Shown piece after piece: positions 115 to 37,443 of a stretch of 62,439 nt of DNA (its first letter is position 1; the number at the start of each line of letters is the position of its first letter). This stretch comes from Nemertoderma westbladi. Its lineage: Eukaryota; Animalia; Xenacoelomorpha. Position numbers and translations under genes: made by a program. Below the pieces are notes generated by a model that was not told where the DNA came from, did not search any database, and saw only the letters and a list, made by a program, of their open reading frames with translations. The stretch spans positions 1 to 62,439 of the forward strand of contig JAUCBJ010003334.1 of assembly GCA_032718475.1 (NCBI GenBank), in the 5' to 3' direction.

Positions 115-115
115 T

Positions 116-11650: not shown

Positions 11651-12629
11651 TTTGTACGCGTAGCGTAATATTTATTATTCAGAGTTTATGCGATTATTCG
11701 CAACATTCATATCCCCAAGTTTATTCCTACAGTAATTGTGTTTGTTATACATACCGTTATAGTTAAACTAACCCCGGTACTACATCAGGGCTGCTCGGCG
11801 TAGGTAAAGACTGGAGATTTTGTGCTTTGGTCACTCCGGCAGATACCGTGGTTCTTTTAGCTGTTCAAGTATTTTTAACTACTGATTATTTGTTGTACAA
11901 GTACTTGTACCTAATTTAGGGTTTAGTGTACAGTGCTTTCCAAAAGCAATTAGTGTGTAGGCAGTATATTTGTGTTGTAAAGTGGTTAATAGGCACGTTG
12001 GTTCTGGTAGACCGCGGTAATTAATCTCTAGGTAGGAACACTCCGTGATACATAACGTAGTACCTATAGCGATACGGTTATAGGTCGTCAGGCGGTGGTA
12101 TTTTCCTATCTGGACAACGCAGTATATTTACTACTACTTATTATTTTCAAATACCGTAGTAACCTGTCCGTTGTAATAACCAGATATTCTAACCCTTTGT
12201 TAGGCTGGTTAGTAGACTTCTTGTAAAATTACCCTAAAAATTCGTATTTGTGTATTTGTAATTAAATTTTTGTGTTTATTTAGAGATTGTAATCTCAACC
12301 CGAATTGTACGTAATTTGTAGTATTAAGTAACTTAGGTAAATTAGAATTATTTGTTTTAGTGTCTAACAAGTAGCACTCCACTGAGAGCGCACAGCTTAT
12401 GTGTAGTGACTCCCCCAGAAATAATAACATTTATTTCAAACGTTGACGAAACCCATTAAACGGGTATATATATATTATAAATCAACCCAAACGATTTATA
12501 AATAGTAGGCCTGCCTTACAACAATTAGGTCTCAATATCAGTTGGAATACTGCTCAAATAACGGTAATAAAGTAAGTTAAAGTAACCAAGTAACCCTTAA
12601 AATTCAGAAATTCAATTATTCTAAAATAA

Positions 12630-12885
12630 TTGACATACCGGTATTTACAATAGGCTTATTACATTTATTTCTATAAATTTTAGGTTGAAATCATACCGGT
12701 ATTCTGTAATTAATTCTAGTTAATAATTATACTTATATATACTATAAGTGTAAACTGCATACCGGTATTCACGATAGGCCTATTATATATTTATATATAT
12801 TTGTGCTAAAATTACCTACCGGTATTCTGTGATAACCTAGTCTGTAATAAAATTTATATATACTATAAGCATACCGGTATTCTAA
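12630..12885. repeat. Degenerate ~60-bp tandem repeats centred on palindromic TACCGGTA
   Basis: TACCGGTATT at ~12637, 12694, 12761, 12817, 12872. Confidence 0.7.
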
Positions 12886-13015
12886 TATATTATATATATC
12901 ACGCTACACTGAGTAGCAGTATCGGTAATTAATTACTAGGCTAGCAGTTAATACTGAATTACTAGACTTGCTTAGACTGTAATATAGCAGTAGGTATACA
13001 ACTGTACAAACAAAC

Positions 13016-14011
13016 ATGTCTGATACTAAGCAGAACCTGTCAGACAGTTTATTAGATGTAACTATCTGCGACTCAGATAAGGGTGTAGAACCGTCTACAC
13101 CTAAATTCAGTTCACCTCCCACTGTGAGGAAGGTCATCCCTCCAGTAGTAACAACAGAACCTAGGCTGGTCCAACACCGTAGGTCTATCATAGGCACTCG
13201 AGCTCAGGTCAAGCGGGACCAAGAAGCAGCGGAACAGCAACAACCCGCGAGCCAAGAACTTATTTCTCAGCGGCCCGACAGCTCCAGTAGTGGAGATACT
13301 GTAGAGCTGACACCCGAGTGCGGAGCAAGGATGACGGATGCGGTTTATTCGGATCCCCTTCTCATCCTTCCTGCAGCCGTACTCACTAGGTTATTGATCG
13401 CGGTGGAAGAACACCAGATCGATTGGGCGAGAAGTAAGCGATCAACTAAAGATAGTTATGAGGGATACACAAGGGAAGAACTGAAGTCTATGGTCGAGTC
13501 GCAATGGAACTTCCCCGGACCCAGACTCCCGTTTGATTTATCAGAACCTGCCTGGGAAGACATACACCGGATGGGAGTAGCCAAGGAGACCACCGATCCA
13601 GCTGTGTGGAAGAGGTCCGCAGCCGGATACGCACAGGGATTCTTCAGCTCTATGGAGCGAGTAGAAAAACAACTGTTTCAACAACCCCAAGGACCTCAAG
13701 AGCAGGGACAACTGCTTTATCAAGTTAGAGAAAGAATTCTACGAATCAGGCTAATCTTATCAGCCTTTGAGGAGGCTTCTAAAAGAAGACAAGACACGTC
13801 GTTGCAAGTTGCTGTAAAGACTTGGTTTCAACGGGTGAGTCTCCAGGTTCAAGGAACGGCTCAGTGGAAAGCTCAGCTAGAGGAGCGCTCAACCCATGGA
13901 GAATCCACGGATATGCTACCTTTTCCCAAGTGGAAAGTGAAGCGACCGCAGAGAAGCCGCATAAGAGGGATGCCATTGACATTTATCTGTCAGACTATCA
14001 GCGTTTTTTAG
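13016..14011 (+). CDS. ORF1 / N-terminal Gag extension of BEL element 1 (overlaps the main ORF, which is in the -1 frame)
   Basis: 331-aa ATG-initiated ORF after the leader; the 13822 ORF opens on TTG with its first ATG ~460 bp in, suggesting the two are joined by a frameshift. Confidence 0.7.
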   Translation: MSDTKQNLSDSLLDVTICDSDKGVEPSTPKFSSPPTVRKVIPPVVTTEPRLVQHRRSIIGTRAQVKRDQEAAEQQQPASQELISQRPDSSSSGDTVELTPECGARMTDAVYSDPLLILPAAVLTRLLIAVEEHQIDWARSKRSTKDSYEGYTREELKSMVESQWNFPGPRLPFDLSEPAWEDIHRMGVAKETTDPAVWKRSAAGYAQGFFSSMERVEKQLFQQPQGPQEQGQLLYQVRERILRIRLILSAFEEASKRRQDTSLQVAVKTWFQRVSLQVQGTAQWKAQLEERSTHGESTDMLPFPKWKVKRPQRSRIRGMPLTFICQTISVF

Positions 14012-17000
14012 GAGATGAAGAGTTGAGGAGAAGGCTAGATGGACTTAGCCCTAATAGTGAAGGAGCCCAGCGTGTGTTGGACGCAATTGATGTGGATAGG
14101 TTAGCGGCGAACCAAGCTAAATTCGATGAACAACTCCGCATCGCTAGAGACCAAGAAGAAAGGGTGAAGAAAAAACGCATAGAAGACAGAAAGAAAGCAG
14201 CAGTAGCAGCTGCCGAAGCGGAAAGGAAAGCAGCCGAAGAGGAAAGTAAAGCAGCCGAAATGGAAAGAAAAGCGGCAGCGGCAGCGGCAGAGGCGGAAGC
14301 GAAAAGAAAAGCAGCCGAAATGGAAAGAAAAGCAGCAATGGCAGCGGCAGAAGCAGAACGGATAGCGGCTGAAGAGATCGCCCAATTAGAACTGGAAAAT
14401 ATTCAGGAGAATCAAGACTGCATAAATAAACAGTTAACAGCTAGTAATATGCAGATGATGAATCGATCTACTCCCAAAAGACAGGGATATACATCATCTG
14501 AGGAAGGCGATACCACCGATACTGAAGGCAAAGGAAATAGATCTCGTCTAAGCAGACGTAAAAGAACATTCCACCGTCAGAAATTGCCTGATTTGCCTCT
14601 AGCTGTTAGAAGGCAACTAAATAACACCAACTTAGGTAGTACAGAACCCACAGACCAAATAATTACAATAGAAAGACTCCCTACTATAGTAGATGAGCCT
14701 GAAATAATTAGGCCTGTTCTTGAAATCACCCCTTCGGTGATAGAGACACCTGTGCTCCCTGAACCTACCTCTAAATTCCCTCTGCACAGCACTAAGCTAC
14801 CTGTGCCCAGTAGAACAGCCCATGAGACAGTTCAGGTCCTGGACTCCGAGCGAAATATTCATGATTTGTCGCCCGTTGTCCCTCGTCCGCCCGCTACAAC
14901 GTTGGCGAATCCCGCTTCGGCGGTCGAATGGGTGGAGGAGAGACGACGGGGGATGGATCTCCTGCTCGGACAGATGCAGGAGACCGTTCAGCAATTCAAG
15001 GGCACAGTAAGGGAAAGTAGGCTAGAGTTGCAAGAAGTGCAGCAAAGTATCGCGCTAGAACGCGATAAATTAGTAAATACACAAAAGGGTATACCACCAC
15101 CCCCTGTAACAATGTGTCAACCTGTTAGGTCTGAAGTATCTCATGCGCAAGGTGTGGAGCCTACACGCATCTATACTGCTAGCGAAGTAGAAACTCCTAT
15201 AGTGAACCCTATTAAGGGTAATTATAGACCTGTTGATAATGATATTCCCTATAGACCGGATCATAATCCGAGAAATTTATATACCGATAACTCGATATTA
15301 AATAACACGATGGCCCAAGAAAGTTTTACGCGTCAAATGGCTAGAACCGAAGCCCGGCAAGCGGTAAAGGTGGGAGTGATCGTCAAGTTCAATGGAGATG
15401 AGATGAAATGGTTACCTTTTAATGAATATTACAAAGATAACATACAGTACTCTGTGCTATCTAATGGAGAGAAACTTAGATTCCTCATCGAGTGCTTGGA
15501 AGGATCTCCCAAGTTAATGGCGTTAAAGTTTATTGGACATCCAGGCGGATTAAGACAAGTTTGGGATACACTAAACATCAGGTATGGTAATAGGAATAAC
15601 ATAGCTGGGTATTTGTATGCAAAGTTGGTAGCGCCCCGAAAGTTTATTAGCAGCGGGATTATAGAGTTTTCCGATGAGATTCAGGAGATCTGCAGACAAT
15701 TAGATTGGCTAGGTAAGTCTAATGAGTATCAGAGTGCTATGGTTATTAGAGCAGTGGCTTCTACTTTACCGAAGGGTGGAGTAGGTACACGCTGGGATAA
15801 GAAAGTGTTATATATGATGGAACAACAACGACGAGACCCTACCATGGCTGATCTCATGTCATTCCTAGATGGAGAAGTGAAATTACAGCTCCTGAAACTG
15901 TCCAGAGAGAAGACACCGGAAAACAAGGTAAGTGAAAAACCCGTCTCTAGGAGAAAGGTAACACCAGTGTGTTATACAGATGACGGCGAAAGCCAGACTT
16001 CTCAAGGAGAAGATAGCGGGAAAGACGCTGACAGATCTTATTACGTAAATAAAATGCCTAAAGATCAGGTAAGTAAATTCAAGTCTCGAACCAATGACAG
16101 GAGAGAACAGGTAAGAAAAATTCCTCCTACGTCTCCCAAGAGAATTCAGGTGAGAAAGCCCGAAGAAAAAGCAAGTGTGCACAATGTTACGCAAAATAAG
16201 GTAAGTAACATCAAACCGAAATATGCGCTATGTGATGGGACCCATCGCTTGAATATGTGTGATGAATTCCTGAAGAAATCATTAGCGGAGAGACGGGAAG
16301 TCATGTGGGATAAGCGGTTGTGTTATAATTGTCTCAGACGAGGACACCAACGGCGAACCTGTTACTCCGACACAAGGTGTGCAAAGTGCGGTGCGAAACA
16401 TCATATCTTGTTGCACACTGAATTCGAGCGAAATAGTCCGAGTCAGGTAAGTGATTCCGAACTACATGTCCAATTCAGTGATGTGAACGACACTGATCAA
16501 TCTGAGATGGAAGGATTCTATACAGACGAGTTCTCCGACGAAAACGAATCCTGTTACATGATAAATACCGCAGTGTATCGAGCACTCACTTATGAAAAAG
16601 ATACAGACATTGACCTCACTCTAACTACTTCTGATCGACAACCATCTTGGAAAGCGCCAACTTCCAATGTAGGGATTAGAGAATTTCCTGTGGTACAGGT
16701 AAGGGTCCACGGACCAAAAAGGAGTTATGTAGTGAACGCCCTCCTTGACTCCGGTAGTACAGGAACATTCATCGACAAAGAGCTAGCTGAAGACATATTC
16801 GCTGGACAACCCAAATTCCGAACTAAGCTAAACATGTCAGGGATTATGCAGGTTTGGAAATCTACAGTAACAGCGGATTATTATGTAGGTGCGTTGTCCA
16901 CCCCCCAGGACGAACTAGGAGAACATAGCATAAGGTCAGTGAAAATGGTGGCTATAAAGAACTTCGCTACTACTCAAGCAGACCTTTATAATTGGGACGA

Positions 17001-20000
17001 GGATGAGAGCATCCAACATCTTAAGATACCTCGATTCCAGACTGATTATCCTGGAGTGCAAATACTCATCGGCCAAAACGCGCATGAGGCGCTCGAGACA
17101 TTGGAGAAACGGCCTGCTCAACCGCAGCCACTACAAACCTATGCGGTAAGAACTAGAGTAGGTTGGTACTTTACTGGCCCTTCCCGTAGAACTCTCATGG
17201 AAAGATTACCGAAAGATCAGGTATATCAAGTGCGAGAATGGGAAGTTGAGAACAGTGAGTTCGACGATCCAACTGAGGGAACTCCATACTCCTCAGACAA
17301 CGACGATATACATCAACTTTTCGATGAGGAGAATGCCATCGATCTCCTTAAGGAAAGCGAGACTTGGCAAAATCAAGTGAACTTATGTCAACTCCTTCTC
17401 CCATGCGAGCGAGACGACTATAACAACGAGCTTAATGACGTCATTGAACGTTATAATGCCAAGACTCGGGATGAACACGCCGTGAGATTCTTTACTCAAG
17501 AGGTCGTAGAGCCCAACTCCTACGATAAGGCCCTATCGGTGGAGGAAGAAAGAGCCAAGCAGATCCAAGCGACAACTACTCGTTTTCTTAAAGATCAAGG
17601 TAGATATGAGATCGGTCTTCCTTTCCGAAAGCGAGAACCAAAGTTCATTAACAACAGACCTTTGGCAGAGAAAAGAATTGCTCAACTACATCGACGCCTT
17701 ACGGCAAATTCTTCACCTAAAGAAATGTATCAAACGCAGTTGAAGAAGTTTATTAGCAAGGGATATGCGGAGCTAGTACCGGAAGAAACCCCTATAACTG
17801 AGAGAACGTATTACTTAACTCACCATTACATTCCCAAACCCGGTAAACCCCATGAAGTACGAGTGGTGTTTGACGGTTCTGCCCTTTATATGGGCCAATC
17901 TCTTAATTCTGAATTGTTACCCGGACCCAACTTACTCCAATCCTTGTTGGGAATACTATTAAGATTAAGACAATACTCCATTGCTTTCGCCTCAGATATA
18001 GAAGGCATGTTCTTACAAGTCAGAGCGCTGGATAGGGATCGAGATAGCCTACGATTTTTGTGGTGGCCTGAAGGAGACCTCAATAAGAAACCTGTGGAGT
18101 ACTGGATGACCATCCAAGCCTTTGGGATAATCTCGAGCCCTTCAAACGCCTGTTCCGTGGTGCGCACCACTGCGGATGACAACCGAGACGCCTTCTCTAA
18201 AGAGGTGATCGACAATATCAAACGAGACATCTACATGGACGATAATCTGAAGTCCCTTCCATCAGTAGAAGAAGCCATTGAGGTCGCTAAAGGAACGGTA
18301 GAATGCTTAAAGAAAGGAGGATTTCGATTAACTAAATTCACTAGCAACTCCCGTGAGTTTCTGGAGTCGATCCCGGTAGAAGATCGAGGAACAAAAGACC
18401 TAGATCTAATAAAGGATGATCTCCCAGAAACTAAGACCCTTGGTTTGAAATGGGACACAGAAAGAGATATCCTGTTTTTCCAATTAAAACAGCGAGATAA
18501 TCCAGTTCGGACTAAACGGATTTGTTTAAGTATCCTGAGCACTTATTTCGATCCATTGGGATTTATTAGCCCAGTTATATTGATTGCTCGGAGTTTAGTA
18601 CAACAAATGTGGCTTGAAAACCACTCATGGGACGATCCACTTAAGGGAGAATTATTAAAGAAGTGGATGAAATGGGAAGATTCTCTACCAGCCATCGAAA
18701 ACTTTATAATTTCCCGTTCATATTTTGGTCATGTTCTCCCTACGTATTCATATCAACTCCATGTGTTTGGAGACGCCAGCGATATGGGAATAGGTATAGT
18801 AGCCTACCTAAGGGTGGAAACTCCGGACGGAATTAAAGTCGCCTTGGTTACCTCTAAGGCATTGATAAACAACAAGTTGAAAGTTCCTCGAGCGGAGTTA
18901 AAAGCGGCTCTATACGCTACAGCCATCGGCCGGAATGTAACAGAACAGATAGACTATCCCCTGGAGAAAACTGTCTATTGGACCGACGCTTTACTCGTGT
19001 TGGAGTATATAACCAATGAAGTCTGTCAGTTCAGCGTCTTCGTTACCAACAGAGTAGCTATTATACCCAGTCGCACGACGATGGATCAATGGAGACATTG
19101 CCCCGGAACGATTAATCCAGTGGACATCGCTTCCAGGGGAGCAACTCCACAAGAACTGGTAGATACTCCAGACTGGTTAGGTGGACCCGACTTCCTCTAC
19201 AAAGAAGAAGAAGAATGGCCTCCTCATCTTACTACAGCAGAAATTAGACAGGCCAAGGGAGCGGAGAAAGTCAAGCCTAAAACTCAGGCGAGTAAATCGA
19301 AGTTATTCAAACCCACAGTAGATCTGTCTGTACTACATACTTCCGGAGACGACGCTTTGGATCAGAAACCCACAGCCACAAATAAACCCGTTGTGGAAAT
19401 CCGTGATAAGGATTGGAAATCTGGCATACCAGACGTCTCGCAAGGACTCTCACCTCTTCTGCAGAGAGCGATACATCACTACAGTTCCTGGAATCGGCTC
19501 TGTAAGGCCGTTACATATTTAAAGAGATGTTTTCACCATCACTACTCTGAGATGAAAGCAAAGGGTGATACCGCTCCAATCACATCAGTGCAGGTCCATG
19601 TTATTAAAGATCTTCCCCAATATAAGATACCCGACAGGTTTCTGAAGGAGAAGATCAGTTATCAGGAGCATGAAGAAACCAACAAACAGATGCTGAGACT
19701 CTTACAATGCTATGAAGATTCCGATAAGTATTTCCTGTTGTTGAGAAATCCACAGATGCGCTTAAGGGATCGTTTCTCTAGCACAATGATAGATGGGTTG
19801 ATACGTGTTGGAGGAAGGTTAACGAATGCCCCATTATCCTTTGATACTAAGTTCCCCATACTCATTAGAAATCTTGAAATACAAGTCAAGATGATTGTAG
19901 ATGTTCACAGCAAACTTTATCATGCTGGTAGAGAACGAGTTCTTAGCGAAATTCGAACTCGCTATTATTTTTATAAACCCCGTAGAGCTCTGAACCAAGT

Positions 20001-21117
20001 TCTTAGGAACTGTATACCCTGTAGGAAAGCATTCAGTAGGCCTTTGACACAGCGAGAGGCAGAATTACCTAGGGAACGAGTAAGCTTTTATGAACCACCC
20101 TTTACTAATACCGGTGTGGATTTATTTGGCCCTATTAAAGTATATCGTGCTAGGACTATAGTCAAGAGATGGTGTGTAATCTTTGTTTGTATGACTTGTA
20201 GAGCCATCCATCTCGATATGGTGAACGATTTATCTACCAACAGCTTTCTATTAAGCTTACGACGACAGATCGCTCGCTTTGGCACTAGTAACACGATGAG
20301 ATCTGATAAGGGAACAAACTTCATTGGTGCCAACAATGAAATCAAAGCTTACGTCAAAGATTGGAACCAAAGACAGGTGGACGACCAACTATGAGTAACA
20401 GCGTCTAGTTGGACCTTCAACGCCGCCGACGCCCCTTGGTGGGGAGGAAGTTGGGAGAGATTAATAAGAAGCGTGAAGACAGCATTTCATTTTATAGTGC
20501 CTTGCCGCGCTTATCTCACCGACGAACTTTTGCGGACGTTAATGGAAGAAATCGCCGCCTATCTCAACGAGAGACCGCTTATGCCAGTCTCATCGAGTCC
20601 CGATTCCCTGGAAACGCTAACACCCGCGCACTTCCTTCTGAAGAAACCTGTAGCCATGCTCCCACAATCGAAAATCACAGACGGAGACGAATACTGCCGA
20701 CAAACTTGGCAACTCATGCAGTTGTTATCCCGTCGTTTCGCTGACCATTTCGAAAAACATTATCTGCCCACGCTACAACTTCGAACTAAGTGGTTTGCGC
20801 AGCAAGAAAACGTCAGCGCTGGAGACATGGTTCTTATTGTGGATGTAGATCTTCCACGTAAGCAGTGGCAGACAGGTCGTATAATCGAGACGCACATCTC
20901 GGATGACGGTTTGGTGCGATCGGTAGAACTCGTCGTCATGCGACGTAACTTCAAGAAACCGGGAATTGTCTTCGAGACGCAGCAGCTCAATCGCCCAGTG
21001 GGACGTTTATGTTTACTGGACAGAGACAGAGAACTCTCCGGAAACTATGGGAGACAAGACACTCTTCCCACGACCACCTCCCTAATCCAACAAACATCTA
21101 GGGACTCCCCAACTTAA
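13822..21117 (+). CDS. gag-pol: BEL/Pao Gag-Pol polyprotein with one in-frame TGA (20392-20394) inside integrase
   Basis: KFNGD..W gag core, three zinc knuckles (first one C>Y), LLDSGS protease, SDIEGMF/YMDD RT, FGDAS/PRAEL/WTD RNase H, HSKLYH..CIPC, DLFGP, SDKGTNF, WWGGSWERLI integrase; 20473-21117 is in the same frame. Confidence 0.95.
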
Positions 21118-21658
21118 CAACGGCTGGAGTGGGTGTGTGACCATATTACTTTATATTTGTATTTGTTTTATTTTTATATTTATGTATGTATTATTATGTA
21201 ATTTTATTTTAATCGTTTTATTTAATTTTATTTAGTAGTATGGTATTTTAGAGATTATTTAGTAGATTAGTGCAATATATATTCGCGTTTATTATTTAAT
21301 TACGTATATTATATATTTAGTGCGACGGCGAGAAATAATTCTTTTTCTCTTTCCTTACTGCCCGTATTACATTATCAATACGTGACTACAGTAAGATGAA
21401 ATCTTCGTACTTACTAAAGTACAATAAAGCCACTACTATATTCAGTATTATTGGTAGGCAGAGTATTAGGAATGCAAAGTTCAGATCCTCGTGTCTCGGC
21501 TAAACCAAGCTCTGGGTAGACCTTGGAAACGACTTGCATCTTCAAACTGACATTGCTTCGTGCAATATTGCTCTCATACCGTATATTAAATAATACATAT
21601 AGTAGCGTGATGTCCCTTTAACAGTAGCGTATAACGCAAAATAAATCTGTTAAACCCT

Positions 21659-21930
21659 TTGACCATCTGTAATTCTAGTCGATTAAGATATCGCGGCACC
21701 CACCGATATACTTGAAAGACAAATTTCTAGAATCAATGGTTAACGTCCCCAGACAAGTTCTGGAATAAACTGGTGCCCATCCTAAATATTAATTATTAAT
21801 ATTTACAAAAATCTGTCAAATATCAGATCCTTTAAAATTCTAGTCGATTAAGATATCGTAGCACTTACCGATACTCTTAAAAGGACAAAATTCCTAGAAT
21901 CAAGGATCCCAGTCCCCAGACACGTTCTGG
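21659..21930 (+). ncRNA. Duplicated stem-loop pair between pol and the accessory ORF
   Basis: Two ~105-nt copies with ATTCTAG/CTAGAAT, TATCG/CGATA and CCAGA/TCTGG stems; different but paired basal stems. Confidence 0.6.
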
Positions 21931-22568
21931 AATAAAATTGTGTCTATTTAACATTAAATAATAAAATTTACGGGAATAAATTTAAATTCAGATATTTTAA
22001 TGAATTTAATAAATTGTCATTTTAGTCAATTTATAACATTCCCAAAATTCCATTAATTAATAGATCATGGGAGCGGAGATTCACTCTATTAAGTGTATTT
22101 GTGTACGAGAATCTCCAATGTATAGTCAATAGCCGATAAAATTCATAGAATCATGTATAAAGGGGATATTGACCATTAAAGAATTACTATTAAATAGCAT
22201 CCCAGATCTGTATGCATGAGAATTACCCTAATTCTACCGCTAGCTTTCCATAATGTCACCATGGCAACAACCACGCTAGAATTAGAAGTGAGTTAAAAGA
22301 ACAATAGAAGGCATGCCCCATTGAATAGCATAGGGAATAAATAGCGCACTGCTAGTATCCAAGGATACATAATAAATACAGTGACATTCTGGAAGGTACT
22401 GACTAATGGACAAATGGCCCGAATGTGTGCAGTTTGTTGCAGTTGTGTTGAATTTGTGCGTTTGTAGGTGAATGTTACTACTAAGGTGTGTTTACAGTAG
22501 CGAGTCGCAATTGTGAAAGTAACCTTAACTCTCCAAGAAGAACCTGCAGTACATCTAAGCCTTTGGGA

Positions 22569-22676
22569 CGGACAGTGAAGTGACTTGTGCCGGTTATCGT
22601 TGTCGTTGTGTAGCTACATCGTTGGCGAAAGCACAGCGACGACGGTACATCGGCGCTGAGGATCTTACACTGTCCG
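22569..22676 (+). ncRNA. Long G-U-rich hairpin upstream of the accessory ORF
   Basis: CGGACAGTG/CACTGTCCG, GTGCCG/CGGCGC and 16-bp TATCGTTGTCGTTGTG/CACAGCGACGACGGTA stems. Confidence 0.65.
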
Positions 22677-22758
22677 GGGGCAAAAGAGGAGTAGGCAGCG
22701 ACGCCCGCTAGCCTAATATATACAAACTCATTATAATATTGATAAACTCATAGCAGAT

Positions 22759-25700
22759 ATGACTGAGTTGATAGAAGATGATCTTGGTATCAGAGAGCGA
22801 TATACTCTACCTTTACAAGCGTTTGTCGATAGCTTGACACGCGGCGACGCTGGTCCAACTACTACGGAGGATGATGGTCGTTATATCGAACCGCCAATGT
22901 CCCCGGAGCAACTTACGCGTGAATTGGACTATAGAAAGTTCACCGCTCGCTATACGCATCGTAATGGTACGTATATGGACTTCTTAACTACCGGCCATCC
23001 TATCGATTTACACGACATGGACGATGTGGATACCGAAAGGGAAATGGTTTTATTTAAATATCATACCCAACGGAATCGGAATGATAAGCCAAGAATAGAA
23101 CACGAGAACTCTATTCGAAACAGACTTGAAAGAGAAGACGTTGAAGAGCCGGATAAACGCAACGACTTCAACGATTATCTGGAATTCTTGAGAGAAACAT
23201 ACCTCAATATTGCCAGTCAACAAAATCTCGAAACTCGATATCCTCAAGGTATACATCATGATCCTATGATAGAACTCAAACGACTCTATTTCACTATGAT
23301 GTATCTTACCGCCGATCGACCGCTACCTGTCATCCCGGATAGCTTCGAACAGATGGAGGAATATTGTAAAACTGGAGAACGATCACCCGTGTTTCCTCTG
23401 CAGGACATGCGTCTTCGGTATTACTGTGACGAATGCCCTAGACCCAATCAGCAAACGGAAAGACATAAACATCCGCGGAGATGTTGCGCTAAACACAGTT
23501 TTACACGATATACTTACGGGAGTTTCGAGCGAAACCTGTTCGACGTATCCCCTGCGGTCGCTTGACTCAAGCGATCCTTGAACAAACCGATGATCAGAGT
23601 TCCGGAATACTCGGTCAGACCTCCGCATTCCTCAGTTAGACCTCAAACTCTTGACCCTAATAGTATCACGGATCCTCCCGAACTGTACTCACTGTTCAAA
23701 GATCTAGTGTTACCCGAACAGTTGATCGGTGGCACTCCGGTAGTAGGCTCACGAGACATTCGCCAACCCTACCTAGCTGGATTGGGACGTGGACATCTAA
23801 TATCGCCGTTTAACCCATACAACCGTCCCGGCTTCACCTCTATCCAACCCGTTACGGAAGTCGAAGAGAGCGTCGTACGAAACGCATTAGACGCTATTCG
23901 GCAGAAAATCGGAAAGGGAACGTACGATTGTTTGGAGAAGCGTAAATTGCAGCAACAAGTCCAAGCGGTAAAGGAATTAGCTTTACACCAGTTCGATAGA
24001 GAAATACAAAATCTTGAGGAGGACATCGAACGTGGACGAACCTACTCTTTACAAGAGTTTCTAGATGAGCGTCTACAACAACAAGCGGAGGAGAATCAGC
24101 TCGAGGAGAGACATATAGAACTGGATGAGAGAGAAGAAGCGGCTTTAGCTCAACCCGAAGCGCAAATCCTGATGACGGATCTCTACTCTAAAACCATTCT
24201 TCATCCCTCGATGGTTCCCCATTTCGGAGACAAACTTTTTGCGACGGCACAACCCCAACCGGTTGATATCAACCTAAGATCTCGAGATCTTATCGCCGAC
24301 GCTCCTATGTTGCAGCGTCCGCCCATCGAATCCGCTCGCGTCGATGGTATACTCGTTGAACCTCCGGACAATAGAGCAGATCTTGTCCGTCGCATGGTAC
24401 ACGATGTAAACATACGCGCTAGACCTTTACCGGACTCGTTTTATGGGATCAAAGATCACCCTTATTACGTCAATCTAAAACAATATTACATGGTAAAACC
24501 GGAAGATCCTACACATAGTCTGAAGTTTCTACCGTTAATAAATCCTCTCGATCTTGTCGAACTCGAACAACTGCAGAAACATCTGGATCAGTTAGTTAAA
24601 GTAAACTCGTTTCGAAAACCATATAATGTTTCCAGAATAGAGAAAGAAACAATACCTCCGTATAATCTTGATGGATTCATCAAAACTCGTTTAGTGCACT
24701 GGAATCTTGATGTGTTATTCGAGGAAGAAAGAATACAACGATATGGAGATGTGGAAACATATACCACACAATATTTAAAGTATAAAGACCTGCCTAATGC
24801 TAGCGAATGTGCTACCTTGTGGCATCCTGTGGGAATGACACTCGAAAACGCCACTAAAGAGTGGAACGAAACTCTTAACGTTATCGAGATGTATGGAGTT
24901 GTCACTTACGATAACGAAGGTAGCGTTCCGGTTGGAGAACTTGGAACTACGCGGATGATACACATACGAGGACTCGCTGGTTCTACCCACGTATTTACTC
25001 GAGCGTGTTCCGACGTTATTGATTATTCTTTTGAAACTCTTACTGAGACACAAAAGAAACTCCGACATGGACAATTTGAGCTCGCGCAGCGTTACGTCAC
25101 CGACACCGAGCGCAAACCGGCCATGGGTATCGATGGATCGATGTTACCCCAACCCGTGCTCGAGATGTTGTTTAACGAAGGAATCCTTAAAATCGGCTCA
25201 GCTGTTTATGGAGACCTACAGAACGACTTTCGGAATATGGAGAACATTCCATACCCCTTCGTTGATACTCAGCTGATTGCTCCTTGGGCAGAAGGCCGAG
25301 GTTTCTTCCTCACTATGTACGCCAATACACCCAGCGGTATTACTAAAGTACAACGAACCTCCATCGGACATCTTGCCTTTCAAGAATACGGATGGAATTT
25401 CAAGGTTGGAAATCCTATAAATTACCAACAAGTATACGGAGATCATTATTCTCGTTTATACTTTGATGGACCGTTGACCGCACCTGGCGCCGTGTATAGC
25501 TTTATGAGTGTTCCACTTCATCCCTCCTTAGCTATATACACGATCTTTGAAAACGCAGCACTTGCCGGTTGGCTAGCCGATGTGTGCAGTCGTACCATAC
25601 GCGCCCATCCCTTAATACTTGGAACCAAACTCGCCAAGTTAGATGAACACAATAAATTCATCCGCTTTGAATGTTTCAGGCGCTTTCTGACTCCATTCCG

Positions 25701-27012
25701 TAACGTTGATAGTCAGTTCAAGGACCGCGCTCTGACCAAACTCAGCCTGAGAGACTCAGCGGCGGAGAAGCTAAACAGCGCGGGATTTGCCCTTTTTCAG
25801 GACGTTTGTATACAGAACTTGCACTCATCTGTTATACAAAGACCCCGAATACCCACGGGTTATTCTGTCGTCGAAGTTCAGACAGTGGGTCCGCTTGCGG
25901 AGACGGCCGCACCTACCTCAGCTATGCAATTGGAAGACGAACCAATATGCTTAGAAGCTGAAGCGATTCAGCCTACAGCGCCCCTGAGCAGCGATAACGA
26001 CTACGTTTTAGAGTGGTATCAAGGTCCACAATGTCTCACCGCATACGATTATCGACACGCTAACTATGTTTCTCGAAAACGTTGTCGATTATGCGCATCG
26101 AGAGACCATTTCACTCCTATGGACTCAGACGTACCCTGCTCCTATTTCCACGAACAACCAATGATGGAGATATATTGTGCGTATTGCAGACTTAATAACT
26201 CTCATATTTTTGCAGTCTGCCCCCAATTTATGACTCAATGCCACCACTGTCAACTTAAAGGACATGCCAGTTATAATTGCCCCTTTAATCACGATTTAGA
26301 GAGCGTAGATGAAATGATTACCCTGCGCTACATCCGAGCTTGGGAAGCGAACGCGGATTTACATTGTGAGTCCCGTCATCGATACTACCCTGGACGCTCT
26401 TACGAGGGAGTTTACGCGTTCCATCCTTATTTATTCGCGTCTGTGGAACAAAAAACACGTACACCGAGTTACAAACTAATGAAGCGTGTTGGTGAGTGTA
26501 TTTCCACCAAATTCGTTCGAAAATACCTTAGGAACGTCAATCCTAACGATATTACTTCATACCATTTGATCAATTATATCCGTCAAGACCCTGAGTATGG
26601 CGATTTATTTATCAACTCGCACCCGGAGTTACAGGAAGTATCTCGACAGCCCTACGAATATCGAGCCCGAGAACGCGAGCTGGAAAGAACTATTAAACCA
26701 AGGAAGTTTCTCACCACTCACGGTCCGCCTACCGCCATTGTCCAGACGACCCGTCAAGGACCCGTAGGAGCTGCTGTCCTGAGGCGCGCCCTAAAGGCTG
26801 TTAGACCTCGCTCCACGGAAGTTGATATCGATCAACCAGGTACCTCGACCGGCGGATATACCGATCGCAATCCGAAACCTTCTGATGCAATTGTATTGCA
26901 CCCTTCACCCAGGAGTTATAGCCCTCCTAGTAAAGTGGCTCGCCCCAAAGAGAAAAGGACTCTTGCTAGCCTCAAAAAACTGCGTAAACGCCGTCCGCGT
27001 AAGAAAGACTAA
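22759..27012 (+). CDS. Accessory protein: DEDD-type 3'-5' exonuclease-like domain, triple CCHC-type zinc knuckles, basic tail; split by one in-frame TGA (23563-23565)
   Basis: ORFs 22759-23565 and 23578-27012 share a frame; VVTYDNEG, LPQPVLEMLFNEGILKIGSAVYGDL, FVDTQLIA, SIGHLA motifs; CRLC..H..C, CAYC..H..C, CHHCQLKGHASYNC; KKLRKRRPRKK. Confidence 0.8.
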
Positions 27013-27090
27013 CTGTTTAGAGTATTTTTATATTTTAGAAACTGTGATTTGTTATATTTTATAGACTTAAATCCCATTTTCTGGGAGCGG

Positions 27091-28249
27091 TGTAAAAGCT
27101 TTTGCGTAATTAACCGGTTATTTTCCCTTAAAGTACTCTGTAGTTGGTTTGCCAGGCATAAAAAGGCCGTGTCCTTGCTGTACTTGTGTTTTAGAGGACA
27201 TAAAAGTCATTTCTTCTGTATTTGTACTTTAGAGGACATAATCCGCAATTTCGGGATGCAATAAGCTCGATACTCTTGAAAACAGTGTCGCTACCATGAC
27301 GACGGCTAACAGCTGATATTGCCACGTCGACATTTCTTTGTTTCTTTGTTCTCTCTTTGTTCGGTTGACCAATCAGAGCGTTTTTTGTCTCTGTGTTGGA
27401 GGTGGATACAGAACTCAGTAATTCAGTGTTATGTTTTTGCCCAGAGCCTAAGAACATCGGCTTTTGGCACCTCCGTATATCAGCATTCTTTAGCTTTACA
27501 TTAGTAGGCTTAATTATAGAACGTATATCTGTTATCGAGTCATCTCAGTTAACAATCCATAACTTACTTACCATATCTTATTAATATTACTGCTTTTACT
27601 GTCGGTTATTCGTTATATTTGTTGATGAAATATTATATCGGAATACTGATCAATAATCAGACACCCCACCTTCTTGATATACTAAAGGTTAGAGAGACCG
27701 GTTACAGATAAACGATTGCGACCTATGTTAAGTGGTTTGAAGTGAATCTAATGCTATTTGATAAGCACTACATGGGTCCGTTGCTGTTCTCTTTATATAT
27801 GATAAAATTTAGTGAAGGTCGGCAGATTAGTGTGCAGTATTGTGCAGCATTGTGTATGAGTGTAACTGATAACAAAGCATCTCCTAAAGAATGCGCCATA
27901 TACGTTAATCTATAGCCTTTTCGTTGTGTCTAGTTTAAGTCATAACTCTGTTTACATATTTAGAGCGCCACGTCCTAAAGGAACTGTTAATATTTCCCGA
28001 AAGTGAATAATATTTGTCAGAGATTATATATTACGATCAGTCGAATAATACGGTAGGCTTACACCATCAATCATTAAGCTTCCGAATTCAGTCTCCCGGG
28101 TATATCCAGCGGGTGAATGATTGCGCATAGACTGGCTTCGGCTAATGTAGTGTGTCAAATACTCGTCATAAGCTAAAGAATATATATCATCCAAAAGACA
28201 TTCTAATTTTGGCAGGTTAAACTGTCAAAGGTCTTCAAAAGCGCAAACA
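27091..28249 (+). repeat. 3' LTR of BEL/Pao element 1
   Basis: Preceded by GGGAGCGG; followed by TSD GTTTC. Confidence 0.97.
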
Positions 28250-28299
28250 GTTTCAAATTATCGATCTGATAATCTATATGATATCTATAACTTACATAG

Positions 28300-29352
28300 T
28301 TGAAATAATAGTATGCGGTTTGTTATGTACCTCTACATATTTTGCGCCTTCTTTATTTTTCATTCATTCATCCATTTATAATTTACGGGTTAATTGTATG
28401 GGGTAACGCGACCCATTCAATAATTAATCCTATCCGCACTAAAATTAATAAATTACTGCGTGCAATCACGTTTAGTGATAGATTTTCCTCCACTGTGCCT
28501 ATTTACAAATCTTTGAATATTTTACCTATCCAAGCGCTCTACAAATATCAGGTATTAATATTTATGTATAATGTTTTAAAAGGTAATTGTCCAAGCGATT
28601 TAAAAAAGGTTGTTTTCTAGAACTGACGCTGTCCATTCCCATAGAACACGGTCGGCTAGCCAAAAAATTTTCTATATTCCATCAAATTGTATTCTTGTAT
28701 CTCAAAGATTACTAAAATATCAGGGTCCTTTTTTGTGGAATTTATTGCCTACTTCAATTAAAGAATGTCAATCATTAAACATATTTTCTGCTAAACTAAA
28801 AAAATATTTAATTAATGAACTGTAACTGCGGGGTCTGGTGCTTTGGTCAGTTTTCATTGCGGTGTCGCTAACGGCTCGTATTATTAACGTTGTTGTCTAT
28901 TCCGTTATCCACTTATAATTTGGGTTTAGTTTATTTCTAACTTTGCTCCTTGTGTGTAATTTTTAATTCAAATGTCGTGCCTACGTACAGATGGATCGTC
29001 ACAATATATGTATTCATATATTTCTACGTGCTTTAATTTTAATTATATATAACGTATACGGTAGTAATTCTAATAAACACAATACGTACTGTATTAAAAT
29101 CGTCAATAATCTTCTAAACGGCGCACAGCCACGTAATAGCTTTGCTATATTGCTGTGTTGCCCTTTTCACTATTACCTAGTTAAATTTTAATTTCACATT
29201 AATTTTAAAACTTAACGCTCCGGCACTTATTTCCAGGAAATTAACTGTTTGTAATATACGTAATTTTGATTGTAATTTTTTTTTGTTATGTATATTGTAT
29301 GTACTTTATATATATATTAGTGAAATAAATAAATAAACTGAAACTGAAACTG
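28300..29352 (+). mobile_element. 3' fragment of CR1/L2-group LINE, frameshifted, (AAACTG)n tail
   Basis: LYFSFIHP..YGLIVWG and GPFLWNLLP motifs; AATAAA followed by ACTGAAACTGAAACTG. Confidence 0.85.
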
Positions 29353-30780
29353 GTATATTGAATCGGTGGACTGACCATCCATTGACTGAGGTGCTTCAAA
29401 GCGGTTTTGAACTTCTACTGTGTAAGCAACCTTTACTGCATAACAACCAACAAACCAAACGAATTGTTGTTGATTCACACCAGATATCTATTGCCCACAC
29501 CTTCCACATGCACCAATACACTGTTTCTAGAACTGCTTTCTATTGCATATTAAATACTGAATTAGCACAAAATCGAACCAGCCTAAATACAAATAGCACA
29601 GCAAGACTGACTGCTTGCTACATACTACTGCACTGCAATAACAGTATTACGCCCTACATACATTAGCTAGGGACCCCCCCCCCCCCCCCTTATTACAAGA
29701 TACTTTTAGCTTTTACTAGAGCGGCCACGCACCCATTATTATTATTATTAATTACAGAAACCTGGAAACATATTCCCTACAACCAACGTTCCATGATGCA
29801 AGGAGTTGCAAGATAACTGTTGATTCTATATACCCCAGTCAACATATGAATATTGGCGCTCGGAGGATTACATTCTATTGAACTTGGAATCGGATTCCAT
29901 TGAACTTATATTATGTATAGTATATGGCTGAACATATGGGTGTGGTAACCCAAAAAAAATTTAGAGAGTTTTATAACCAACTTTATTTTATTCAGTATTT
30001 TATTGCCTTTTTACTCCTGAATGTTGTCATTTCATAGCTCTTTGAGGAAAAGAGTTTTGGAAGAAACAAAGTTTATTAGAAACGATTACAATGTCCGTTT
30101 ATTGCTTACCTACACGACGTTCTTAGGTAATAATTTGATAATGGTTTTTGAAATATTCCATAACTATTTAGTAATTTGATATTAATTAAATACCGCATGC
30201 ACAATGCACATTCAACGTTAAGTTCAATGTCGGTTGTGGGTCGGCCACGTACATGGGTCCGTTGCTGTTCTCTTTATATATGATAAAATTTAGTGAAGGT
30301 CGGCAGATTAGTGTGCAGTATTGTGCAGCATTGTGTATGAGTGTAACTGATAACAAAGCATCTCCTAAAGAATGCGCCATATACGTTAATCTATAGCCTT
30401 TTCGTTGTGTCTAGTTTAAGTCATAACTCTGTTTACATATTTAGAGCGCCACGTCCTAAAGGAACTGTTAATATTTCCCGAAAGTGAATAATATTTGTCA
30501 GAGATTATATATTACGATCAGTCGAATAATACGGTAGGCTTACACCATCAATCATTAAGCTTCCGAATTCAGTCTCCCGGGTATATCCAGCGGGTGAATG
30601 ATTGCGCATAGACTGGCTTCGGCTAATGTTGTGTGTCAAATACTCGTCATAAGCTAAAGAATATATATCATCCAAAAGACATTCTAATTTTGGCAGGTTA
30701 AACTGTCAAAGGTCTTCAAAAGCGCAAACAGTTTCAAATTATCGATCTGATAATCTATATGATATCTATAACTTACATAG

Positions 30781-31833
30781 TTGAAATAATAGTATGCGGT
30801 TTGTTATGTACCTCTACATATTTTGCGCCTTCTTTATTTTTCATTCATTCATCCATTTATAATTTACGGGTTAATTGTATGGGGTAACGCGACCCATTCA
30901 ATAATTAATCCTATCCGCACTAAAATTAATAAATTACTGCGTGCAATCACGTTTAGTGATAGATTTTCCTCCTCTGTGCCTATTTACAAATCTTTGAATA
31001 TTTTACCTATCCAAGCGCTCTACAAATATCAGGTATTAATATTTATGTATAATGTTTTAAAAGGTAATTGTCCAAGCGATTTAAAAAAGGTTGTTTTCTA
31101 GAACTGACGCTGTCCATTCCCATAGAACACGGTCGGCTAGCCAAAAAATTTTCTATATTCCATCAAATTGTATTCTTGTATCTCAAAGATTACTAAAATA
31201 TCAGGGTCCTTTTTTGTGGAATTTATTGCCTACTTCAATTAAAGAATGTCAATCATTAAACATATTTTCTGCTAAACTAAAAAAATATTTAATTAATGAA
31301 CTGTAACTGCGGGGTCTGGTGCTTTGGTCAGTTTTCATTGCGGTGTCGCTAACGGCTCGTATTATTAACGTTGTTGTCTATTCCGTTATCCACTTATAAT
31401 TTGGGTTTAGTTTATTTCTAACTTTGCTCCTTGTGTGTAATTTTTAATTCAAATGTCGTGCCTACGTACAGATGGATCGTCACAATATATGTATTCATAT
31501 ATTTCTACGTGCTTTAATTTTAATTATATATAACGTATACGGTAGTAATTCTAATAAACACAATACGTACTGTATTAAAATCGTCAATAATCTTCTAAAC
31601 GGCGCACAGCCACGTAATAGCTTTGCTATATTGCTGTGTTGCCCTTTTCACTATTACCTAGTTAAATTTTAATTTCACATTAATTTTAAAACTTAACGCT
31701 CCGGCACTTATTTCCAGGAAATTAACTGTTTGTAATATACGTAATTTTGATTGTAATTTATTTTTGTTATGTATATTGTATGTACTTTATATATATATTA
31801 GTGAAATAAATAAATAAACTGAAACTGAAACTG
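30781..31833 (+). mobile_element. Second copy of the same LINE fragment, created by the tandem duplication
   Basis: Near-identical to 28300-29352. Confidence 0.85.
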
Positions 31834-33159
31834 GTATATTGAATCGGTGGACTGACCATCCATTGACTGAAGTGCTTCAAAGCGGTTTTGAACTTCTACT
31901 GTGTAAGCAACCTTTACTGCATTAACTGCATAACAACCAACAAACCAAACGAATTGTTGTTGATTCACACCAGATATCTATTGCCCACACCTTCCACATG
32001 CACCAATACACTGTTTCTAGAACTGCTTTCTATTGCATATTAAATACTGAATTAGCACAAAATCGAACCAGCCTAAATACAAATAGCACAGCAAGACTGA
32101 CTGCTTGCTACATACTACTGCACTGCAATAACAGTATTACGCCCTACATACATTAGCTAGGGACCCCCCCCCCCCCCCCCCCTTATTACAAGATACTTTT
32201 AGCTTTTACTAGAGCGGCCACGCACCCATTATTATTATTATTAATTACAGAAACCTGGAAACATATTCCCTACAACCAACGTTCCATGATGCAAGGAGTT
32301 GCAAGATAACTGTTGATTCTATATACCCCAGTCAACATATGAATATTGGCGCTCGGAGGATTACATTCTATTGAACTTGGAATCGGATTCCATTGAACTT
32401 ATATTATGTATAGTATATGGCCGAACATATGGGTGTGGTAACCCAAAAAAAATTTAGAGAGTTTTATAACCAACTTTATTTTATTCAGTATTTTATTGCC
32501 TTTTTACTCCTGAATGTTGTCATTTCATAGCTCTTTGAGGAAAAGAGTTTTGGAAGAAACAAAGTTTATTAGAAACGATTACAATGTCCGTTTATTGCTT
32601 ACCTACACGACGTTCTTAGGTAATAATTTGATAATGGTTTTTGAAATATTCCATAACTATTTAGTAATTTGATATTAATTAAATACCGCATGCACAATGC
32701 ACATTCAACTGACTAAACTAGAGCAATATCTAGAGAACCTATCTCTCTACTATAGTTTTGATGGTGTCTACACTAACATCATTGTGAATCAAATTCCTAT
32801 ATTGCATTGATATCCTGATCCTGAATTAATTTCAGTCAGCCTTCAAATCCTCACCAATATCTCGAGAACCAATCACTCTAGTATTGTTTTGATTATGTCT
32901 ACAGCCACTAAATAGGTTATAGTGGTTCGAATCAGTAGGAGAAAGAAATGAGTAAAGCCCCGTTGACATCCAATGGTGTGTGAGCGGTAAAGTAGTCCGG
33001 CGGTCTTGAAGCAGTAAGCTACCCGGAGCCTGTTCACACCCAACGGTAACTGATTGTCTATCTGTAGACTGTGAATTCAACAGGAAATTACATTAATTGT
33101 TTTAACATTGTTTAAATGGGCTGCGGTAAACCGCGCGGTTTAGCGCACAACTAACTGTT

Positions 33160-34999: not shown

Positions 35000-36240
35000 G
35001 GCTTGCTAGGCATTTTCAGGTTAGCCTCCCATAAACGCCTCGACAGTGACATCATGAGAGCCGGGTTGAAGGATCTCACCAGGAAGGTGAAGAATGTGCC
35101 ATAGACGAGGTCAGCATGGTGGCATTCTCCAGTGGAATTGCTTCAGGCCATCGTGTAAAACGATCGATGATTGTAAAGAGGTATGTGTAGCCTTTAGATA
35201 CCGGAAGGGGACCGACGAGGTCGATGTGGATGCTGCCAAATCGACGGTCAGGTTGAGGTCGAGTGGCAAGAGGTGCGTGTACGTGGCGCTATACTTTTGA
35301 TGCTCGGCACGGGTGGCATTCTCGGCACCATTTTCGAATATCTGATTTCATCCTGTATCATATAAACTTAGATGAAATTGCGCATTGTGTTGGATGGAAA
35401 CTGGCGTGTGCCAGATTGTGTATGGCGTCAAACACTCGTTTAGTCCATGTGGCTGCCGGGACGATGGGCCGATTGTTTCCAGTGGAAACATCGCATAGGA
35501 CTGAGTAGTCGCCGAAGGATATGTCTTTGAGGCAGAGACCAGGGATTGCTGAGATTGCTGTGCGATACGAGGCGATGTCTAATACGATGCGATTGCCAGC
35601 TGGTGATAGTTTATTGTTGGTAGGTAAATTGCTGAGACCGAGGGAGCTACTGCACGTGAGAGTGCATCAGCAACAATATTGTCAGGGCCTTTGATATGGC
35701 GAATATCAGTTGTGAATTCGGCAATGTAAGATATATGTCAAGTTTGGCATGGTGAACGATCAGTAGAGGCTGAGAAAGCGAAGGTAAGTGGCCTGTTAGG
35801 GTGTATGAGGAGGGTGGCGTTTGTGAGTGCTGATTTTGCAGCTTCAAAGGCGGACTGACAGTTTGTGGTCCAGATTATCTTTACCTTTGCCCTTTGTTGC
35901 TTCGTGGAGTGCTGAAAGGGTGCTGGCAACACGCGGAATAAAGCGGTGATAATAATTTATCATTCCGAGGAAACATTGGAGTGCAAGTTTTGATTCAGGT
36001 ACTGGGTAGTCGAGGATGGCAGAAACTTTGTTTGGTAGTGGAGTAATGCCTGTGGCATTGATGTTATGACCTAGGTATGTGAGTTCTGCTGAACCGAAAA
36101 CACACATACCACATACTCCTATTTATTACCATCCCATTGTCGAAAAGGAGGCGGAAAACCTGCCTCAAGTGGTCTGCATGTTCTTCAGAGTTTGTATTAG
36201 CAACAAGGATGTCGTTTAGGTAAACAAATATGAAGGGAAT
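35000..36240 (-). pseudogene. Decayed Gypsy pol fragment (RT-RNase H-integrase)
   Basis: YLGHNI..GITPLPNKV..FLGMINYYHRF, HIDLVGP, ADLVYG remnants with frameshifts and deletions. Confidence 0.85.
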
Positions 36241-36477
36241 GCACTGTCAAATGTTATTGGCAACTGTCACTGTTAACACTGTCAAATACAAGAGTAATAC
36301 TAACTAGGGAGTTCAATATTTAACCCTTTTCATACCAACACTTAAAAAAGGAGGCACACAACTGACGTCTTTGTCATTCTACATAATTCAGGAACATGCT
36401 CATAAAGGAGGCCTTGTGCCACCTTTATAAAATTATAACTTAACCCCCAGGGCGGCAGAGTTCCGCCTTTACATACA

Positions 36478-36809
36478 TTATCCTGACCCCCCCCCCCCCC
36501 CCCCCCAGGGCGGCAGAGTGCGGTCTTTATCTATGGGGCGGAAAAATGGAGTTCGTTGTCGTGGTATTCGTGTTCGGCAGGAAAAACTGGTCTAAATAAT
36601 TTAATTTAATATTGCTTGATGGGATTCCAATTGGTTTGAGGGTACTTTAAATTACATAATTTTTTATGCAATTTAATTTCAATTTAGCCAATAATTTTGT
36701 TACAAATGATTAAGGCGGCAGTGTGCCACCCATGGCGTTCAAATGAAGGACTTAAAAATTTCGAAAATGGTTTAAAGGCGGCAGTGTGCCGCCTTTGGTG
36801 GCAGGATAA
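36478..36809. mobile_element. Putative non-autonomous DNA transposon (MITE)
   Basis: TTATCCTG/CAGGATAA ends and repeated GGCGGCAGwGT..GCC subterminal motifs. Confidence 0.45.
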
Positions 36810-36835
36810 GTAGTAATAGAGTTATCCTCTTTATA

Positions 36836-37008
36836 TATAAAATCTCTGGTACGACAAGAAAATAAACCTTGGTCCGATCAAATATATTTTTCTTGGTCCT
36901 TAGAAGTAAAAATTTATGTAACATAAAATCTCTGGTACGACAAGAAAATAAACCTTGGTCCGATCAAATATATTTTTCTTGGTCCTTAGAAGTAAAAATT
37001 TATGTAAC
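36836..37008. repeat. ~86-bp tandem repeat x2
   Basis: AAATCTCTGGTACGACAAG...TTATGTAAC repeated. Confidence 0.9.
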
Positions 37009-37443
37009 TTATCTTTGGTATGCAAAGGGTTTTAAAAATTTAGAATTCATATTTCATACTGATAATTTTGAATTCATACAAAATTTGTTACAGAGTCCAA
37101 TTAATGCATCGATTATTTTTATTCTAACATTAAGTCCATTTTTTGATCTACTGGTGTTTTTTTCCAACGTTGGATTCACTGACCACTACACAATTTTTCA
37201 GTTTTTCCAAAAATATACACATATTGTGAAATTGTTGCCCTTCGTTTAGAGATTTATATAGTATTATTATTCATACAGTCATATATACAGTATACATATT
37301 CTGATAGCTTCGAGAACATTGCAATCTGTTGTCTGATGATTGGTTTCAGAGTTTAGTATACAACCCTATGTGATTACTATACTGCAGTACTGACGTGCAT
37401 ATTATACTGACTGGAATTATTGTCCAGTCTGCATGTCTGCCTA

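Follow-up and report, generated by a model that had tools for sequence, protein, structure and literature searches.

A zinc-knuckle gene with a putative DEDDy-derived exonuclease domain in an 18.6-kb BEL/Pao retrotransposon of Nemertoderma westbladi

ORF3 and its host element

The window analysed here, a stretch of 62,439 nucleotides from the xenacoelomorph Nemertoderma westbladi (contig JAUCBJ010003334.1), contains an 18,586-bp (18.6-kb) long terminal repeat (LTR) element, hereafter element 1 (9664-28249), which carries a third open reading frame, ORF3 (22759-27012), downstream of gag-pol. ORF3 is very probably a conserved accessory gene of a BEL/Pao lineage with a selected function. Its middle part resembles the DEDDy 3'-5' exonucleases and is followed by three zinc knuckles. 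Unless stated otherwise, the genes, LTRs and other stranded features described below lie on the forward strand.

Element 1 is bounded by a 5' LTR (9664-10822) and a 3' LTR (27091-28249) of 1159 bp each, which have TG..CA ends, differ at 3 positions (99.7% identity) and are flanked by GTTTC target-site duplications (9659-9663 and 28250-28254). The gag-pol region (13016-21117) encodes DUF1759, a protease, a reverse transcriptase (RT), Peptidase_A17, an integrase and DUF5641, in the order protease-RT-RNase H-integrase. DUF1759, Peptidase_A17 and DUF5641 are marker families of BEL/Pao, as is partly stated in the Pfam name, and element 1 is assigned to this superfamily by its LTRs with their short target-site duplication, its Pfam families and its domain order. 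A spacer of 1.64 kb (21118-22758) separates pol from ORF3, and a purine-rich tract (27083-27090) lies upstream of the 3' LTR. ORF3 occupies the env-like position that the initial annotation had given it, between pol and the 3' LTR and within the duplication-bounded LTRs. It lacks the transmembrane anchor of env genes, the best 19-residue hydropathy mean being 1.19, in agreement with the earlier claim that no transmembrane helix is encoded. Because no inner repeat pair was found between the leader and the spacer, gag-pol and ORF3 are taken to belong to one insertion, and a nested arrangement, with gag-pol inserted separately inside an ORF3-only element, was rejected. Diverged tandem repeats are present both in the 2.2-kb leader (unit of ~289 bp, 11103-11683) and in the pol-ORF3 spacer (unit of ~165 bp, 21671-21971). 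A 2.46-kb tandem duplication (99.3%) at 27766-32709, which begins within the 3' LTR and takes in flanking DNA, is either a candidate duplication or an assembly artefact.

The copy of element 1 in the window is decayed. Near 13.8-14.0 kb its gag breaks into two frames, and at 20392-20394 pol is interrupted by a stop that is missing from ~75-100% of the contig depth per sequencing run. The family is large and varied, with 146,506 contigs in run X1 and 39,836 in run X3 at at least 85% identity, and all 30 bins of the element are covered by contigs in each of four runs (contig depth is not copy number, and was used neither to rank genes nor to count copies). Run X1 is possibly the source of the window; X5 may be an RNA run and was not counted as evidence of expression.

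The span and the frame of ORF3, 1417 codons in the sense direction, are as first described, while the frame is not open in this copy: a TGA at 23563-23565 (codon 269), which the initial annotation had missed, splits it into 268 and 1148 codons. Other copies of the LTR family, in all four runs, lack this stop. A different letter at 23563 accounts for 9541 of 9564 units of contig depth in run X1, 16285 of 16323 in X3, 930 of 930 in X4 and 5.35 of 5.35 in X5. The stop at codon 269 is private to the window copy, and programmed read-through was rejected because other copies lack it.

Differences among copies at 23380-23780 were evaluated for selection on 38 of the 79 differences found at 20% or more (40 were listed and two, in the stop codon, were excluded). 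Of these, 30 are synonymous, against 35% expected (p 4e-8), giving a crude ratio of non-synonymous to synonymous differences (pN/pS) of 0.14; likewise 30 of the 38 fall on third codon positions, and no insertion or deletion is among those listed. Since the differences are mostly synonymous and pN/pS is low, purifying selection acts on this 401-base stretch, which belongs to the N-terminal part of ORF3.

The N-terminal part comprises 690 residues and includes a Q/E-rich stretch (23953-24141), probably a coiled coil, for which only a weak NudE-like coiled-coil match was obtained (E 0.049). A Cys/His cluster at 23425-23496, also in the N-terminal part and without a Pfam match, may be a further metal site. 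The three Cys/His zinc knuckles (26083-26280) have the spacings CX2CX4HX9C, CX2CX5HX4C and CX2CX4HX4C, exactly as had been claimed, and are accompanied by a short module that recurs in two related sequences described below. The knuckles resemble those of retroviral nucleocapsids; a likeness to Air2 (E 0.064) is weaker and was set aside, and a weak match to 7c45, a chain of the Trypanosoma RNase D entry series, was also obtained (E 0.14). No Pfam match at E up to 10 was found for 25624-26082, the place after the nuclease domain where an HRDC domain would lie. The basic tail (26974-27006), likewise as first reported, is by its composition a possible nuclear localisation signal.

The exonuclease-like domain

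The middle domain of ORF3 (24838-25599) contains two long insertions and the putative active-site residues D718, E720, D819, Y927 and E931, whose codons start at 24910, 24916, 25213, 25537 and 25549, respectively. The sole match to it among 1.84 billion representative sequences is P0001 (E 1.1e-4), a protein of 648 residues encoded on one 9449-base contig, which has the same layout as ORF3: a nuclease-like domain, a low-complexity linker and three knuckles. P0001 links ORF3 to characterised families. In the ESM Atlas, its residues 38-250 reach 0.94 against WRN-like exonucleases, and 25 of the 30 matches obtained fall in clusters bearing PF01612 (38% of the members in the entry shown). PF01612 is also its sole Pfam family, at an E value of 0.035 that falls short of the cut-off.

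With a profile built from ORF3 and P0001, 44 of 301 bacterial genomes gave a match at E<=0.05, and in every case the match covers the ExoII block; 27 of the 44 were scanned, and all 27 are RNase D (the remaining 17 stand outside this count, 3 having been fetched but excluded and 14 not fetched). The reverse comparison used a profile of bacterial RNase D genes picked by Pfam, without reference to ORF3. Of the 279 six-frame ORFs in the window, ORF3 ranks first with this profile (E 0.002), and the score of 14.1 bits on the ORF3 domain exceeds those of all 2000 shuffled sequences, so that the resemblance to DEDDy exonucleases that the initial annotation had seen is beyond chance. A corresponding profile of WRN-like bacterial genes failed to find ORF3 among the window ORFs. 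Profile-profile comparison gave a probability of 90.8% and an E value of 1.2e-6, over 47 columns only. By these comparisons the ExoII block of ORF3 is homologous to RNase D, and it is the only block of the domain that is significant alone. We regard the domain with little doubt as a distant relative of the DEDDy 3'-5' exonucleases.

The exonuclease motifs quoted in the initial annotation, including D at 24910 and E at 24916, are in frame at the places given. All 3 modes of unguided MAFFT alignment bring D718, E720 and D819 into register with the invariant residues of ExoI and ExoII. ORF3 has the D-x-E of ExoI at the end of the first strand (D718/E720) and the Asp of ExoII with its flanking block (D819), and departs from the Y-x3-D of ExoIII: the Tyr is kept and the fourth residue is Glu, both in ORF3 (Y927/E931) and in P0001 (Y229/E233), in line with the earlier suggestion of an ExoIII motif with E instead of D. 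ExoIII of P0001 is placed on Y229/E233 in all three MAFFT modes, and the best fit of its motif to ORF3 is at residue 919, with a score of 16, the rival register scoring 4. The BLAST alignment of ORF3 with P0001 gives the same register as this fit. We therefore read the active site of both proteins as D-E-D-E and the Tyr as retained, the ExoI and ExoIII registers being probable but not certain. The Glu at the fourth position places the domain, on sequence criteria, as DEDDy-derived and not as a canonical DEDDy member.

A homologue-guided structural model, made with bacterial homologues, has a core with a predicted local distance difference test (pLDDT) score of 70-92 by blocks. It aligns with RNase D at Z 13.0 and a root-mean-square deviation of 3.2 over 163 residues, and its structural matches at Z 10-13 comprise RNase D, polymerase I, WRN, EXD1, Rrp6, Nibbler and Egalitarian. 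Both results are circular, since the model was built on homologues in an alignment chosen, among several trims, for placing ExoIII on Y927/E931. The model may therefore be taken to indicate compatibility with the DEDDy fold only, and it cannot rank subfamilies.

Several observations weigh against the exonuclease reading. ExoI is not significant alone, its score against P0001 being attained by 963 of 2000 shuffles. MAFFT places ExoIII of ORF3 on Y927/E931 in only one of three modes and on Y913/S917 in the other two, and with a bacterial ExoIII matrix this site is not one of the four best positions; the fourth residue is, moreover, Glu and not Asp. The ORF3 domain has no Pfam, PHROG or PDB sequence match. 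Single-sequence AlphaFold prediction gave a pLDDT of 30 and no usable fold, and in the homologue-guided model the two long insertions stay below pLDDT 50. The ESM Atlas returned for the ORF3 domain only lipoxygenase matches at 0.77, which is chance level, and a lipoxygenase identity was rejected accordingly. The initial annotation had named a dN/dS near 1 as grounds for giving up its reading; the low crude pN/pS argues otherwise for the N-terminal part, and this figure comes from 38 of the 79 differences and covers only 23380-23780, which is not part of the exonuclease domain. Taken together, the DEDDy-like reading and its residue assignments stand; the significance of ExoI alone and an independent fold do not come with them.

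A second element and the self-priming signature

A second, decayed BEL/Pao element, element 2, occupies ~37.4-46.9 kb of the window; no second LTR was found for it. Its gag-pol (38495-45268) is 27-42% identical to that of element 1 in the matched segments. The integrase breaks off near 45268, and the sequence then runs into the end of an ORF3-related gene, of which the C-terminal part with the knuckles and the downstream module is preserved (45960-46853). This remnant shares 32% identity with the P0001 knuckle region (pairwise E 2e-11) and matches ORF3 of element 1 at E 0.003; the exonuclease domain is lacking. Other copies of element 1 itself have lost the domain as well, by deletions with the joints 23127>25932 and 24120>26878. 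The element 2 remnant together with these joints indicates that the ORF3 gene type is common to distant BEL/Pao lineages and that single copies can lose the exonuclease domain. The module that follows the knuckles is common to ORF3, P0001 and element 2, and P0001 itself probably comes from an ORF3-bearing BEL/Pao element. Related loci were not found in metagenome, genome or viral contigs, nor on plasmids. Word-based protein searches, each covering a limited length range, returned nothing for the ORF3 domain or for the two-sequence profile, and only P0001 itself when P0001 was the query.

No TGG-type transfer RNA (tRNA) primer site follows the 5' LTR of element 1. In its place, the 11 nucleotides directly after the LTR (10823-10833) are the exact complement of a stretch within the LTR (10098-10108), the candidate self-primer. 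A complement of this length was reached in 29 of 20000 Markov-shuffled LTRs and by 3 of 9160 background positions. When the transcript is folded from 10098, which assumes that transcription starts there, the self-primer pair has a probability of 0.6-0.99. Element 1 fits the published self-priming rule (at least 10 nucleotides, 0-5 nucleotides after the LTR) and has no tRNA site. Transcription could instead begin at an initiator-like word at 10118, a rival start that would drop the primer from the 5' end.

Element 2 has a comparable pair: 12 nucleotides after a CA (37733-37744) are the exact complement of 37461-37472, the LTR ends being putative. This is the sole complement longer than 9 bases among 150 CA ends in 36000-38480, and in the wider window 7 of 3239 CA ends reach at least 11 complementary bases, both element sites included. 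The 10-base word CCGGACCGGT occurs only twice in the window, at 10913 and 37845, and follows the primer sites of element 1 and element 2 by 90 and 112 bases, respectively, which supports the placing of the element 2 site. Both BEL/Pao elements are thus candidates for carrying a self-priming signature instead of a tRNA site, in contrast to a Ty3/gypsy-type element of the same window, which carries an ordinary TGG primer site. The arrangement is like that of Tf1 and sushi, in which the sequence after the LTR is complementary to 11 nucleotides of the LTR according to PMC4600332 and PMC6317226; there, Ty3/gypsy is the group in which self-priming has been described, with predictions for some copia lineages of plants, whereas here the host is BEL/Pao and the signature is read from sequence alone. 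ACCGGT is enriched in the leaders of both BEL/Pao elements, and together with CCGGACCGGT it may be a common packaging or regulatory motif. A further 12-base stretch after a CA, at 8516-8527, is complementary to sequence less than 1.3 kb upstream and is tied to no element.

Elsewhere in the window, two Ty3/gypsy-type elements lie at 1-4250 (forward strand; the one with the TGG site) and 48420-51737 (reverse strand). The intervals 4616-5545, 47370-48140, 56427-57260, 59438-59760 and 61050-61850 hold a LINE-like RT fragment and several arrays of tandem or inverted repeats, with units of 95/211, 15, 21 and 21 bp. An intron-less ORF on the reverse strand (57856-58521) looks by eye like a Rho-family small GTPase. 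The window holds no tRNA genes, and Rfam gave one chance-level match.

Known relatives and possible roles of ORF3

DEDDy third genes are known from bdelloid rotifers, as the initial annotation had stated: Rodriguez, Kenefick and Arkhipova (2017, PMC5408684) describe them in the LTR elements Juno and Vesta and in Athena/Terminon, with a DEED motif and no demonstrated activity, an account that is repeated in passages of later reviews (PMC6431247, PMC5718144, PMC6338049). Like these genes, ORF3 is a separate, non-envelope third ORF after pol without a transmembrane segment, is RNase D-like and DEDDy, and has one altered acidic residue. It differs in that the altered residue gives D-E-D-E and not DEED, in its size of 1417 codons, in its N-terminal part of 690 residues, in the long insertions and the three knuckles, and in its host, as BEL/Pao is not among the four lineages listed in the part of PMC5408684 consulted. 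In a BEL/Pao survey that bounded elements at 15 kb (PMC3118150) the word "exonuclease" does not appear in the main text, and in the accessible text of PMC554778 env is the sole extra gene mentioned. The literature search found no DEDDy gene of such a large multi-zinc-finger architecture in BEL/Pao, consistent with its having gone unrecognised by the initial annotation; nor did it find any report of a DEDDy gene or of self-priming in this superfamily, although Repbase reports, subscription journals or supplements could hold one.

In the RNase D of Trypanosoma brucei (TbRND), too, a zinc-finger domain comes after the RNase D-type domain, and cells that overexpress TbRND have less guide RNA (PMC7797062). 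Unlike ORF3, TbRND is a cellular enzyme of ~300 residues in the solved chains, and no direct sequence link between the two nuclease domains was found; it is a functional analogue only. Egalitarian and EXD1 share the fold class with ORF3, and both are large proteins whose domain binds RNA. They are host genes, unlike ORF3, Egalitarian keeps D-E-D-D (bioRxiv 10.1101/2025.08.03.668247, portions available), and neither ranks above other DEDDy structures in the fold search with the homologue-guided model. Dada DNA transposons of Laccaria and Ectocarpus are likewise mobile elements with a DEDDy exonuclease domain; unlike element 1 they are DNA transposons in which, by the section consulted of PMC3706591, the domain is inserted in the transposase and retains four canonical catalytic residues.

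We tentatively propose that ORF3 is a likely 3'-5' exoribonuclease with knuckles that acts in trans on short silencing RNAs or their precursors, a mechanism that, taken as a whole, we consider possible and short of probable. ORF3 would be made from a spliced message with an acceptor near 22497; a branch-point-like word and an AG at 22479-22497 form a candidate splice acceptor, after which the next ATG is the start of ORF3 (22759). The protein may enter the nucleus through its basic tail, the knuckles would bind single-stranded RNA and the exonuclease domain would trim RNA 3' ends. This presupposes that a two-metal active site tolerates Glu at the fourth position, to which we give slightly better than an even chance. 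The weakest step is the substrate, small silencing RNAs or precursors that would be trimmed or destroyed in trans. Such RNAs are put first because of the analogy with TbRND, which acts on small RNAs (the same action of ORF3 being a proposal), and because the gene behaves as a trans-acting accessory: action in trans is suggested by the domain-deleted copies of element 1 and by the loss of the domain from element 2. The activity would probably help element 1 to blunt host small-RNA defences.

Some facts speak against this role. Mature PIWI-interacting RNAs (piRNAs) bear a protective 3' methyl group, which would restrict the target of ORF3 to their precursors or to RNAs that are unmethylated. Rotifer elements, whatever the type of their ORF3, are still covered by small RNAs, and a clear link to copy number was not seen (PMC5408684).

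There is a minor but real chance that the domain is a weak or dead nuclease that serves as an RNA-binding surface, so that ORF3 would be an adaptor that binds, escorts or shields the RNA of the element. The Glu at the fourth position in both proteins and the long insertions near the core suit this reading, as do the coiled-coil stretch and the basic tail, and there is a precedent in Egalitarian, which works without its active site, and in EXD1, which is inactive (bioRxiv 10.1101/2025.08.03.668247, portions available). Against it, ORF3 and P0001, at an identity of only ~30%, still have in common the Tyr, three acidic residues and an acid at the fourth position, which points to selection on the metal site.

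A small chance attaches to the idea that ORF3 processes the RNA of the element itself, trimming a 3' end up to a duplex, possibly that of the self-primer or the end of the genomic RNA. Both BEL/Pao elements of the window combine this type of ORF3 with the self-priming signature, and the knuckles resemble nucleocapsid knuckles. Processing of structured-RNA 3' ends, a known activity of DEDDy enzymes, was the role suggested by Rodriguez et al. for the rotifer genes (PMC5408684). However, element 1 has an RNase H region, on which the self-priming of Tf1 relies (Levin reportedly found in 1996 that it needs the RNase H domain of RT), and transcription starting at the initiator-like word at 10118 would exclude the primer from the 5' end. 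In its boldest form, which is a long shot, the idea is that a giant tRNA-independent BEL/Pao lineage encodes a D-E-D-E zinc-knuckle exonuclease that matures its primer by trimming to the 11-base duplex. If true, this would be an element-encoded primer-maturation enzyme, undescribed for any retroelement in the literature searched.

It is improbable that the likeness to exonucleases arose locally by chance or is what remains of a decayed domain, in a gene kept for another domain. The profile comparison is significant over 47 columns only, the ESM Atlas fails to recognise the ORF3 domain and copies without it exist; nevertheless, independent routes converge on DEDDy, and the motifs stand in the right order in two distant proteins. 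Proofreading or polishing of complementary DNA, which would let an 18.6-kb element copy itself accurately in the manner of nidovirus ExoN, is very improbable: family A polymerases do have DEDDy proofreading domains, which the guided model matches in fold among others, and the element exceeds the 15-kb bound of the survey (PMC3118150, main text), but the sequence signal is to RNase D and not to polymerase or WRN-like bacterial domains, ORF3 is separate from pol, and the copies differ widely from the window copy, with no sign of high fidelity.

Hardly any LTR element of animals is known to encode a defined enzyme for anti-silencing or RNA processing, and for the DEDDy third genes of rotifers no functional test has, as far as the literature search shows, followed since 2017. 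The arrangement is here extended to a second LTR superfamily, in a gene under selection and with a discrete domain suited to assay. Elements as long as this one, at 18.6 kb, may have escaped notice, since one BEL/Pao survey set its bound at 15 kb, and the self-priming signature would be a second testable departure from the textbook life cycle. The layout common to two distant BEL/Pao elements and an outside protein suggests an old gene family that domain libraries have missed.

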